Shown here: positions 41,544 through 47,169 of the stretch, piece by piece | Numbering within the stretch: the first letter of the stretch is position 1 | Layout of the letters: the number at the start of each line of letters is the position of its first letter | Assembly (NCBI RefSeq): GCF_003334785.1 | Contig: NZ_QOWV01000009.1 | Direction: 5' to 3' (one strand) | Origin: Escherichia coli | GTDB lineage: Bacteria > Pseudomonadota > Gammaproteobacteria > Enterobacterales > Enterobacteriaceae | DNA length: 64,000 nt | The notes under the pieces: generated by a model | What the model saw: only the letters and a program-made list of their open reading frames with translations | What the model was told of the DNA's origin: nothing | The model's database searches: none | Program-made: the position numbers and the translations under genes

Positions 41544-44696
<3,153 letters not shown>

Positions 44697-44713
44697 TACA
44701 ACGTGTAATCACT

Positions 44714-44738
44714 AAGGCCGCGTAAGCGGCCTTTTTTA
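44714..44738 (+). terminator. Intrinsic terminator downstream of acrB
   Basis: AGGCCGC-gtaa-GCGGCCT followed by TTTTTT. Confidence 0.8.
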
Positions 44739-45241
44739 TGCATAACCTACGAACATTAAGGAGTAATTGAACCACCAACTCAGGATCTCATACGAAAACC
44801 AGTATTAACCACGGATAAAATTCATAAAAAATACTGATTGTTAGTTAATTTATATTAAGTAGCGCTAATAGATTTAATAATCCATAATCATTTAGAGGCT
44901 ATTCTTAATTATTTGCGGTAATTCTTTATTCATTCCTCGGTTATTACGTCATATTCAGAGCAATCCTGGTATTAGTGTCACCAATTTCATCTGGCGATAA
45001 TCCTGAAATGTTATGAATAGTTCGAGCAAACTGCTTTTACCTGCTGCGGGTTAGTGCTAGTATGAAAAAGTGAGTCCTGTCCCGCTTCCTTCCTAATTGT
45101 AATTTTTCGTAATAATGCGATGAAAACCTGCAAAGAGTGGCTTATAGTTAAGCTAACAAACGAGAGGGCAAGTCCAGGTCAGTAAGTTTTTTCCATCCCG
45201 AAAGGTGTCCGTTAGTTCAACCGCTAAGAAGGGGACGCGTT

Positions 45242-45616
45242 ATGGATGAATACTCACCCAAAAGACATGATATCGCACAGCTTAAGTTTCTCTGTGAAAC
45301 CCTGTATCATGACTGCCTTGCAAACCTTGAAGAAAGCAATCATGGCTGGGTAAACGACCCAACCTCGGCGATCAACCTCCAGTTGAATGAACTGATTGAG
45401 CATATTGCGACCTTCGCACTTAATTACAAAATTAAGTATAATGAAGACAATAAGCTCATTGAGCAGATCGACGAATATCTGGATGACACCTTTATGTTGT
45501 TCAGTAGTTATGGTATTAATATGCAGGATCTTCAGAAATGGCGGAAGTCAGGTAATCGACTATTCCGTTGTTTTGTCAATGCGACGAAAGAGAATCCTGC
45601 GAGTTTATCTTGTTAG
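45242..45616 (+). CDS. tomB: Hha toxicity modulator
   Basis: 124 aa, immediately upstream of hha. Confidence 0.9.
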
Positions 45617-45641
45617 AATTATTACAACCATAGGTAGAAGT

Positions 45642-45860
45642 ATGTCCGAAAAACCTTTAACGAAAACCGATTATTTAATGCGTTTACGTCGTTGCCAGAC
45701 AATTGACACGCTGGAGCGTGTTATCGAGAAAAATAAATACGAATTATCAGATAATGAACTGGCGGTATTTTACTCAGCCGCAGATCACCGCCTCGCCGAA
45801 TTGACCATGAATAAACTGTACGACAAGATCCCTTCCTCAGTATGGAAATTTATTCGCTAA
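45642..45860 (+). CDS. hha: Hha haemolysin-expression-modulating protein (H-NS co-regulator)
   Basis: 72-aa product [72 protein letters not shown]; the track shows it only as the tail of a longer, wrongly extended ORF. Confidence 0.93.
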
Positions 45861-45937
45861 TAAATAATTCGCTTTCGGAGCTATAACCGGCTGTTTATTA
45901 AGAATTTTATACTTTTTCGCCATGAAGACATACCCTA

Positions 45938-45953
45938 TGTGATCTTTATCACA
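45938..45953. promoter_or_regulatory. Candidate CRP binding site upstream of maa
   Basis: TGTGA-TCTTTA-TCACA, perfect match to both consensus half-sites, centred about 86 bp upstream of the maa start. Confidence 0.4.
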
Positions 45954-46031
45954 CAGATGTAATGGGAACGTTCTCTTCACTGACTTTTCGTCTTACTGTG
46001 TTGCCGCATTTTCAGCAACCGGAGGTCAGTA

Positions 46032-46583
46032 ATGAGCACAGAAAAAGAAAAGATGATTGCTGGTGAGTTGTATCGCTCGGCAGATGAGACGTTATCTCGC
46101 GATCGCCTGCGCGCTCGTCAGCTTATTCACCGATACAATCATTCCCTGGCGGAAGAGCACACATTACGCCAGCAAATTCTCGCTGATCTATTCGGTCAGG
46201 TGACAGAGGCTTATATTGAGCCAACGTTTCGCTGTGACTATGGCTATAACATTTTTCTCGGTAATAATTTTTTCGCCAACTTCGATTGCGTGATGCTTGA
46301 TGTCTGCCCTATTCGCATCGGTGATAACTGTATGTTGGCACCAGGCGTTCATATCTACACGGCAACACATCCCATCGACCCTGTAGCACGTAATAGCGGT
46401 GCTGAACTGGGGAAACCCGTCACCATCGGTAATAACGTCTGGATTGGCGGACGCGCGGTCATTAACCCTGGTGTGACCATTGGTGATAACGTCGTGGTAG
46501 CCTCAGGTGCAGTTGTCACAAAAGATGTCCCGGACAACGTTGTCGTGGGCGGTAATCCAGCCAGAATAATTAAAAAATTGTAA
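46032..46583 (+). CDS. maa: Maltose O-acetyltransferase (hexapeptide-repeat acyltransferase)
   Basis: Left-handed beta-helix hexapeptide repeats ([27 protein letters not shown]..). Confidence 0.92.
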
Positions 46584-46698
46584 TCGGTTTTTCGCAACTG
46601 TTATGCAAAATTGTGGTAGATCTGTTACTTCCCCTCTACTATTCCCACGTTAAAATAGGGTGTTCCCTGGAAAGTTGCAGATACCACGAAGGCAAACG

Positions 46699-47169
46699 AT
46701 GACCGAAATACAACGCCTGCTGACCGAAACGATTGAGTCTCTGAATACCCGCGAAAAACGCGACAACAAACCCCGCTTTAGTATCAGTTTTATCCGTAAA
46801 CATCCGGGGCTGTTTATCGGTATGTACGTTGCTTTTTTTGCCACCCTGGCGGTGATGTTGCAGTCCGAAACGCTGTCAGGCTCTGTCTGGCTACTGGTTG
46901 TATTATTTATCCTGCTTAATGGTTTCTTCTTTTTCGATGTCTACCCACGCTACCGCTATGAAGATATCGACGTGCTGGATTTCCGCGTTTGCTATAACGG
47001 CGAATGGTACAACACGCGCTTTGTACCTGCCGCGCTGGTTGAAGCCATCTTGAACTCTCCGCGTGTCGCGGATGTTCATAAGGAACAACTGCAAAAAATG
47101 ATCGTCCGTAAAGGTGAACTGTCTTTTTACGATATTTTTACCCTCGCTCGCGCCGAATCAACATCTTAA
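46699..47169 (+). CDS. ylaC: Inner membrane protein of unknown function
   Basis: 156-aa product from ATG 46699 with two TM helices. Confidence 0.85.

Follow-up and report, generated by a model that had tools for sequence, protein, structure and literature searches.

A documented cAMP-CRP site as the probable class I activator element of the Escherichia coli maa promoter, with a candidate TreR operator over the -35 region

The window, which is the whole 64-kb stretch of DNA that was analysed, carries the acrB-tomB-hha-maa-ylaC region of Escherichia coli together with pdeB, and all of the named genes lie on the plus strand. Following acrB (41547-44696) and tomB (45242-45616), the hha gene (45642-45860) encodes a protein of 72 amino acids according to the sequence, the list of open reading frames and the annotation, and it is the upstream neighbour of maa on the same strand. 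The maa gene (46032-46583, open reading frame and RefSeq annotation), which lies downstream of the promoter discussed here, encodes the maltose O-acetyltransferase, a protein of 183 amino acids. Maa is a hexapeptide-repeat sugar O-acetyltransferase (Pfam Mac/Hexapep) of the same enzyme type as LacA, and counts as a minor enzyme whose role in physiology is uncertain. A 501-bp query that covers the hha-maa segment is matched in 5,425 of 5,426 complete E. coli genomes, in which the two genes are annotated as hha and maa. Beyond the Enterobacteriaceae, the genome scan places the nearest relatives of Maa in the Bacillota (Paenibacillus, Bacillus and others, 61-72% identity), and no other Proteobacteria are found among the best 80 Maa relatives listed in that scan (loci L014-L080). 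The sequences suggest that Maa may have moved horizontally between the Enterobacteriaceae and the Bacillota.

The spacer between hha and maa measures 171 bp (hha stop 45860, maa start 46032) and contains, 3' of the hha stop codon, the 16-mer TGTGATCTTTATCACA at exactly 45938-45953. This motif, its position, the length of the spacer and a distance of about 86 bp to the maa start had all been given by the first-pass annotation and are read in the same way here, with the centre of the 16-mer at 45945.5, 86.5 bp 5' of the maa ATG. The site, which has no strand of its own, consists of the half-sites TGTGA and TCACA around the central hexamer TCTTTA and agrees with the CRP core at 10/10 positions; a T and an A flank the core within the central hexamer (TGTGAT...ATCACA), and a hand count against the 22-bp consensus AAATGTGATCTAGATCACATTT gives 15/22. 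It is the sole match to TGTGANNNNNNTCACA (TGTGA-N6-TCACA) in the 64-kb window at either 0 or 1 mismatch. A perfect core is expected 0.05 times by chance in the window, and at least one was present in 5 of 100 shuffles of it. The 'perfect 16-bp match' of the first-pass annotation has to be corrected to a perfect 10-position core, as only 10 of the 16 positions are specified by the motif. Since approximately four perfect cores are expected by chance in a 4.6-Mb genome (hand arithmetic, uniform composition), the motif taken alone, apart from conservation and binding data, is suggestive and not decisive.

Binding of CRP to this sequence has been published both in vitro and in vivo. Genomic SELEX placed maa among 119 newly identified cAMP-CRP targets, and the supplementary table of that study gives TGTGATAAAGATCACA in the maa/hha spacer, which is the reverse complement of TGTGATCTTTATCACA (Shimada 2011, PLoS One, PMC3105977). 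For the same maa/hha peak the table also gives a weaker second motif, AGCGATACAACTCACC, which corresponds to positions 46062-46077 of the window within maa, where it appears as GGTGAGTTGTATCGCT and constitutes a weak CRP-like sequence (7/10 of the core); the coordinates of the two maa/hha sites in the table appear to be swapped. This intragenic GGTGAGTTGTATCGCT is unlikely to be an activating site because it lies downstream of the maa start site. ChIP-seq in ETEC H10407 identified a peak at 540805 that contains the exact TGTGATCTTTATCACA, is assigned to ETEC_0511/maa and belongs to 111 high-confidence in vivo CRP sites; this in vivo support was obtained in ETEC H10407 and not in K-12, the sequence of the site being identical (Haycocks 2015, PLoS Pathog, PMC4287617). 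The look-up of CRP ChIP data that the first-pass annotation had proposed is therefore positive, whereas its idea that the site represents an unrecorded regulatory input has to be abandoned at the level of binding, which had been reported in 2011 (PMC3105977) and again in 2015 (PMC4287617). By our own count, 8 of the 111 ChIP-seq targets in the table contain a perfect core, and maa is among them (Haycocks 2015, PMC4287617). The in vivo-bound TGTGA-N6-TCACA core is a property that maa shares with caiT, mtlA, galP, ycfQ/bhsA, ygcW/yqcE, yibI and fdhD/fdoG. For mtlA and galP there is classical genetic evidence of CRP control, whereas the literature search for maa turned up binding data only.

CRP almost certainly binds the site at 45938-45953. 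The maa CRP site is thus known at the level of binding, to which its class I geometry and its conservation across genera are added here. A literature search turned up no study in which the dependence of maa expression on CRP or glucose was tested directly (crp or cya mutants, presence or absence of glucose), and maa is absent from the 12 newly predicted promoters that were assayed as lacZ fusions in a crp mutant (Shimada 2011, PMC3105977). The accessible parts of the supplementary data of a Crp ChIP-exo study and of a 2026 carbon-source atlas have no entry for maa. The maa/hha spacer (45861-46031) was also recovered by genomic SELEX with FlhDC, with a peak at 479234 that lies about 6 bp from the centre of the CRP site, as were the treB/treR spacer and other CRP-type sugar promoters (PMC9962212); this overlap may reflect coincidence, shared DNA features or a co-purifying protein.

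The transcription start site of maa has been mapped from 3 reads to position 479168 (minus strand), with a 5' UTR of 26 nt (Kim 2012, PLoS Genet, PMC3415461, supplementary file 2). The promoter sequence given there, GATGTAATGGGAACGTTCTCTTCACTGACTTTTCGTCTTACTGTGTTGCCG, is identical to positions 45956-46006 of the window, which places the start at G46006 on the plus strand. A start at about 46006 with its -10 element, -35 element and 17-bp spacer had been predicted from the sequence ahead of the start site data, with which the prediction agrees. The -10 hexamer TACTGT (TAnnnT) at 45994-45999, assigned from the alignment and the published start, occupies -12 to -7, and a weak -35-like hexamer TTCTCT (3/6) is found 17 bp upstream of it at 45971-45976 when the sequence is compared with that start. 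The Shine-Dalgarno sequence GGAGG at 46021-46025, whose GG is nearly invariant in the promoter alignment, is likewise on the plus strand. Weak -35 elements are typical of activator-dependent promoters, and class I CRP sites, which share the helical face of RNA polymerase, are centred near -61.5, -71.5, -82.5 or -92.5. Measured from the published start, the CRP site of maa spans -68 to -53 and is centred at -60.5, a class I position 1 bp from the canonical -61.5, although with 3 reads for the start this value could be off by about 1 base. The accessible part of the Cappable-seq supplementary data lists no start at these coordinates. In the passage of the RpoD-only 'constitutive promoter' SELEX table that covers the region, the neighbouring spacers are present and the hha-maa spacer has no peak, which is weakly consistent with activator dependence of the maa promoter.

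A second start assigned to maa, at 479377, has 7 reads and a 235-nt leader (Kim 2012, PMC3415461). It corresponds to window position 45797, inside the hha coding region. A convincing terminator was not found after hha, the 3' region of which has a fold z-score of +1.05 and folds no better than shuffled sequences. The start inside hha and the lack of a convincing hha terminator suggest that some transcription enters maa from upstream and crosses the CRP site. The terminator scan flagged only the CRP palindrome, on the minus strand, and this palindrome was rejected as the terminator of hha. A search for structured RNAs or sRNAs in the spacer gave no Rfam match at E<=1 across 44600-46700.

The site was compared across 20 maa loci, comprising the window, 13 enterobacterial maa loci from the genome scan and 6 obtained by exact-protein look-ups, all of which are syntenic (tomB-hha-maa-ylaC). 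A CRP-like site with at least 8/10 of the core is present in 18 of the 20, centred 79.5-92.5 bp 5' of the ATG, the exceptions being Siccibacter and Klebsiella. The half-sites are kept in Escherichia, Salmonella, Citrobacter, Enterobacter, Kluyvera, Pluralibacter and Cedecea, whereas N6 and the flanks differ in almost every lineage. Across 14 genera or lineages the aligned -10 elements (TACTGT, TACCGT, TAACGT, TAAAGT, TAGGGT and TACCTT) all keep T45999 and nearly all keep T45994, and the distance from the CRP centre to the start of the -10 element is 48.5 bp in 9 of the 14 aligned maa promoters. Within E. coli, both half-sites are invariant in 10 sampled lineages and N6 reads either TCTTTA or TCTTCA, most of the other variation among these lineages being located upstream of the CRP site. 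This polymorphism, seen as T or C at window position 45951 (N6), splits the complete E. coli genomes roughly half and half by identity, with 2,647 genomes on one side and 2,607 on the other. The pattern of conservation indicates that selection has probably acted on a functional activator site that serves maa, and it is stronger evidence for the site than the motif by itself. The first-pass view of the 16-mer as a CRP site for maa is in this way backed by SELEX, ChIP-seq, class I geometry and cross-genus conservation.

The documented cAMP-CRP site is probably the upstream element through which a sigma-70 promoter of maa is activated in a class I, CRP-dependent manner, with a candidate TreR layer in second place, and activation of maa transcription by CRP is regarded as probable. 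At some sites strong binding of CRP goes along with little effect on transcription, and it is conceivable, if unlikely, that CRP is bound at maa and the site is transcriptionally inert. Such a reading would draw on the literature search, in which no maa expression data for crp mutants were found, on the 34% of CRP peaks that lie inside genes and illustrate that binding is not always promoter control (Haycocks 2015, PMC4287617), and on the weak use of the maa start with its 3 reads (PMC3415461). It does not sit well, however, with a position of -60.5 that differs from the canonical class I position by no more than 1 bp, nor with a spacing of 48.5 bp to a conserved -10 element in 9 of 14 promoters and a core of at least 8/10 in 18 of 20 loci despite near-random flanks, as such conservation would scarcely be expected unless promoter function were under selection. 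A further reading, which is very improbable, holds that the site acts mainly on read-through from hha/tomB or on a minus-strand antisense transcript into hha and not on maa. The site is symmetric and lies just 3' of hha, which is followed by no convincing intrinsic terminator, transcripts from the start at 479377 (window 45797) inside hha may cross it, and an AT-rich TAAAAT-like hexamer is present on the minus strand at 45909-45904. As the sequence is read, however, CRP would stand near -48.5 relative to a start set by this hexamer and could not activate from there; the promoter scan detected nothing on the minus strand of the spacer, and the conserved -10 element, the palindrome described below and the Shine-Dalgarno sequence all face maa. 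That the motif is a chance occurrence to which CRP does not bind is practically inconceivable: only 10 positions are specified, perfect cores did appear in shuffled windows (5/100) and a few are expected genome-wide, but SELEX and ChIP-seq both report binding at exactly this sequence (PMC3105977, PMC4287617) and the site is conserved across genera, and the published occupancy together with the conservation refutes a chance match.

The class I reading of the maa promoter leaves a second element to be accounted for. A palindrome, GGGAACGTTCTC, at 45964-45975 (no strand assigned) matches GGGAACGTTCCC at 11/12 positions by sequence comparison and is a candidate operator for the LacI-family repressor TreR. 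It spans -42 to -31 with its centre at -36.5, 24 bp downstream of the CRP centre, and lies over the -35 region, overlapping the hexamer at 45971-45976, which is a placement where a bound repressor would block the core promoter. GGGAACGTTCTC is the sole match to GGGAACGTTCCC in the 64 kb at no more than 1 mismatch, with 0.11 expected. Among the 20 maa promoters, 10 contain the perfect GGGAACGTTCCC (12/12), namely those of four Citrobacter and three Enterobacter lineages, of Kluyvera, and of S. enterica and S. bongori; E. coli, E. ruysiae and Pluralibacter match at 11/12 positions, Cedecea and Enterobacter Ag1 at 10/12, and E. albertii and locus L002 at 9/12, and the palindrome is absent from Escherichia sp. 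ESNIH1, Siccibacter and Klebsiella. The distance from the CRP centre to the palindrome is 18 bp in Cedecea, Enterobacter Ag1 and Enterobacter R1 and 24-25 bp in the remaining maa promoters.

The same palindrome is found at treB. The E. coli treB promoter reads TGTGATCTTCGCTGCGTTTCGGGAACGTTCCCG, and in the treR-treB intergenic regions of 7 genera TGTGATC..CG and TTT-GGGAACGTTCCC-TTT are invariant while the flanks have diverged. In approximately 350 kb of compared loci, in which the six later maa loci were scanned upstream only, the perfect 12-mer GGGAACGTTCCC occurs in every treB promoter and otherwise in maa promoters only. A search with TreR by tblastn across 13 maa loci revealed no LacI-family gene beside maa, and a local LacI-family regulator was accordingly rejected as the owner of the GGGAACGTTCCC palindrome. 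The Klebsiella maa promoter (L099:470-600), which has neither the CRP site nor the GGGAACGTTCCC palindrome, contains a LacI-type palindrome of another sequence, GAAACCGGTTTC, shortly before a -10 element TATACT, and this arrangement resembles an exchange of regulators between orthologous promoters. In the literature, the only printed instance of GGGAACGTTCCC that was found is the Streptomyces CebR2 operator TGGGAACGTTCCCA, which supports the assignment of the palindrome to the LacI-family type of site and is silent on TreR.

TreR is said, following Horlacher and Boos in 1997, to repress treBC at the treB promoter, and the GGGAACGTTCCC palindrome of this promoter is taken here to be the TreR operator. 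Operators of the LacI family have the form of an inverted repeat with a CG centre. On the sequence comparison, an action of TreR at the maa promoter in E. coli is possible but on balance doubtful, whereas the perfect palindrome of Salmonella, Citrobacter and Enterobacter tips the balance slightly in its favour there. There is about an even chance that the GGGAACGTTC(C/T)C palindrome instead belongs to a different regulator of similar specificity or is a conserved promoter element of the -35 or UP type. Neither the literature search nor RegPrecise points to a link between TreR and maa: no experiment that connects the two was found, and the 8 TreR regulons listed for the Enterobacteriales comprise 8 sites in total, which would be one each and presumably at treB, so that maa is not included. 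TreR SELEX binding has been reported inside sdhCDAB, and maa is not mentioned (Ishihama 2016). The different spacing between the CRP centre and the palindrome, which is 24 bp at maa and 18 bp at treB, would also favour a regulator other than TreR, and the GAAACCGGTTTC palindrome of Klebsiella shows that the maa promoter can be wired to other repressors. Against this stand the 10 lineages in which the maa palindrome agrees with that of treB at 12/12 positions, the restriction of the GGGAACGTTCCC 12-mer to treB and maa promoters in the compared DNA, and the treB-type spacing of 18 bp in the three maa promoters of Cedecea, Enterobacter Ag1 and R1. Moreover, an inverted repeat that is perfect over 12 bp and centred on CG has the form of a LacI-family operator and not that of a -35 element.

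It is proposed tentatively, with somewhat less than an even chance, that maa is an unrecognised second member of the TreR regulon and that its ancestral enterobacterial promoter had both a class I CRP site and, over the -35 region, a perfect TreR operator. As part of this TreR-regulon reading, the operator would be decaying in Escherichia, where a C to T change is fixed in E. coli and E. ruysiae and further decay would have taken place in E. albertii, and in Klebsiella it would have been replaced by a different LacI-type operator. Co-control of maa by TreR is possibly a new point, as no record of it was found.

It is proposed that the maa promoter is laid out as a CRP site at -60.5, the weak -35 element TTCTCT, a 17-bp spacer, the -10 element TACTGT, a start at G46006, a 26-nt leader, GGAGG and the ATG. 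When glucose is scarce, cAMP-CRP would bind at -60.5 and contact the C-terminal domain of the alpha subunit of RNA polymerase, and the polymerase would in this way be recruited to a poor promoter by the mechanism that operates at lac P1. In a second layer, TreR bound to GGGAACGTTCTC would block the -35 region until it is released by trehalose-6-phosphate, and maa would thus be governed by CRP and a specific repressor according to the same logic as treBC and lacZYA.

The lac P1 promoter combines a class I CRP site at -61.5 with a LacI-family repressor, and the lacZYA operon includes the acetyltransferase LacA. The maa promoter is reminiscent of it in the distance of about 61 bp between CRP site and start (-60.5 compared to -61.5), in its weak core promoter and in a palindrome of the LacI-family type, which at maa is a candidate operator. 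Unlike the lac genes, however, maa is monocistronic and unlinked to a sugar transporter or hydrolase, the lac operator is located at +11 whereas the candidate operator of maa lies between the CRP site and the -10 element over the -35 region, and at maa the dependence of expression on CRP is a prediction. Another parallel is provided by treBC, a CRP target listed in RegulonDB that is repressed by TreR and induced by trehalose-6-phosphate. The elements of the treB promoter are arranged in the same order as at maa, with a TGTGATCTT... CRP site followed by GGGAACGTTCCC, and the distance from the CRP centre to the -10 element is 48.5 bp in both, the treB -10 element (TATTCT) being deduced from the alignment; treB was already among the known CRP targets in the genomic SELEX study (Shimada 2011, PMC3105977). 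The two promoters differ in that CRP centre and palindrome are 18 bp apart at treB (palindrome at about -42.5) and 24 bp apart at maa of E. coli (palindrome at -36.5), in that the right half of the treB CRP site is poor (CTGCG) whereas the maa site is perfect, and in that the palindrome of E. coli is perfect at treB and has one mismatch at maa. Finally, treB adjoins treR and maa does not.

The finding of the CRP site adds little by itself, because binding at maa had already been published. The gain is a tidier record, in which the site stands as a class I element centred at -60.5 relative to a mapped start and kept throughout the history of the tomB-hha-maa-ylaC locus. The side observation on TreR is of more consequence than the CRP site. 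The TreR regulon is usually treated as one operon, and control of maa by TreR, if true, would extend it beyond that operon and place Maa in trehalose catabolism. In that case maa would be induced together with treBC when trehalose-6-phosphate accumulates, in parallel to lacA within lacZYA, and Maa could possibly dispose of free glucose that is released by TreC. The maa promoters of the Enterobacteriaceae would then also be a clear case, found in nature, of an orthologous promoter whose operator decays in some lineages and is swapped for another elsewhere.
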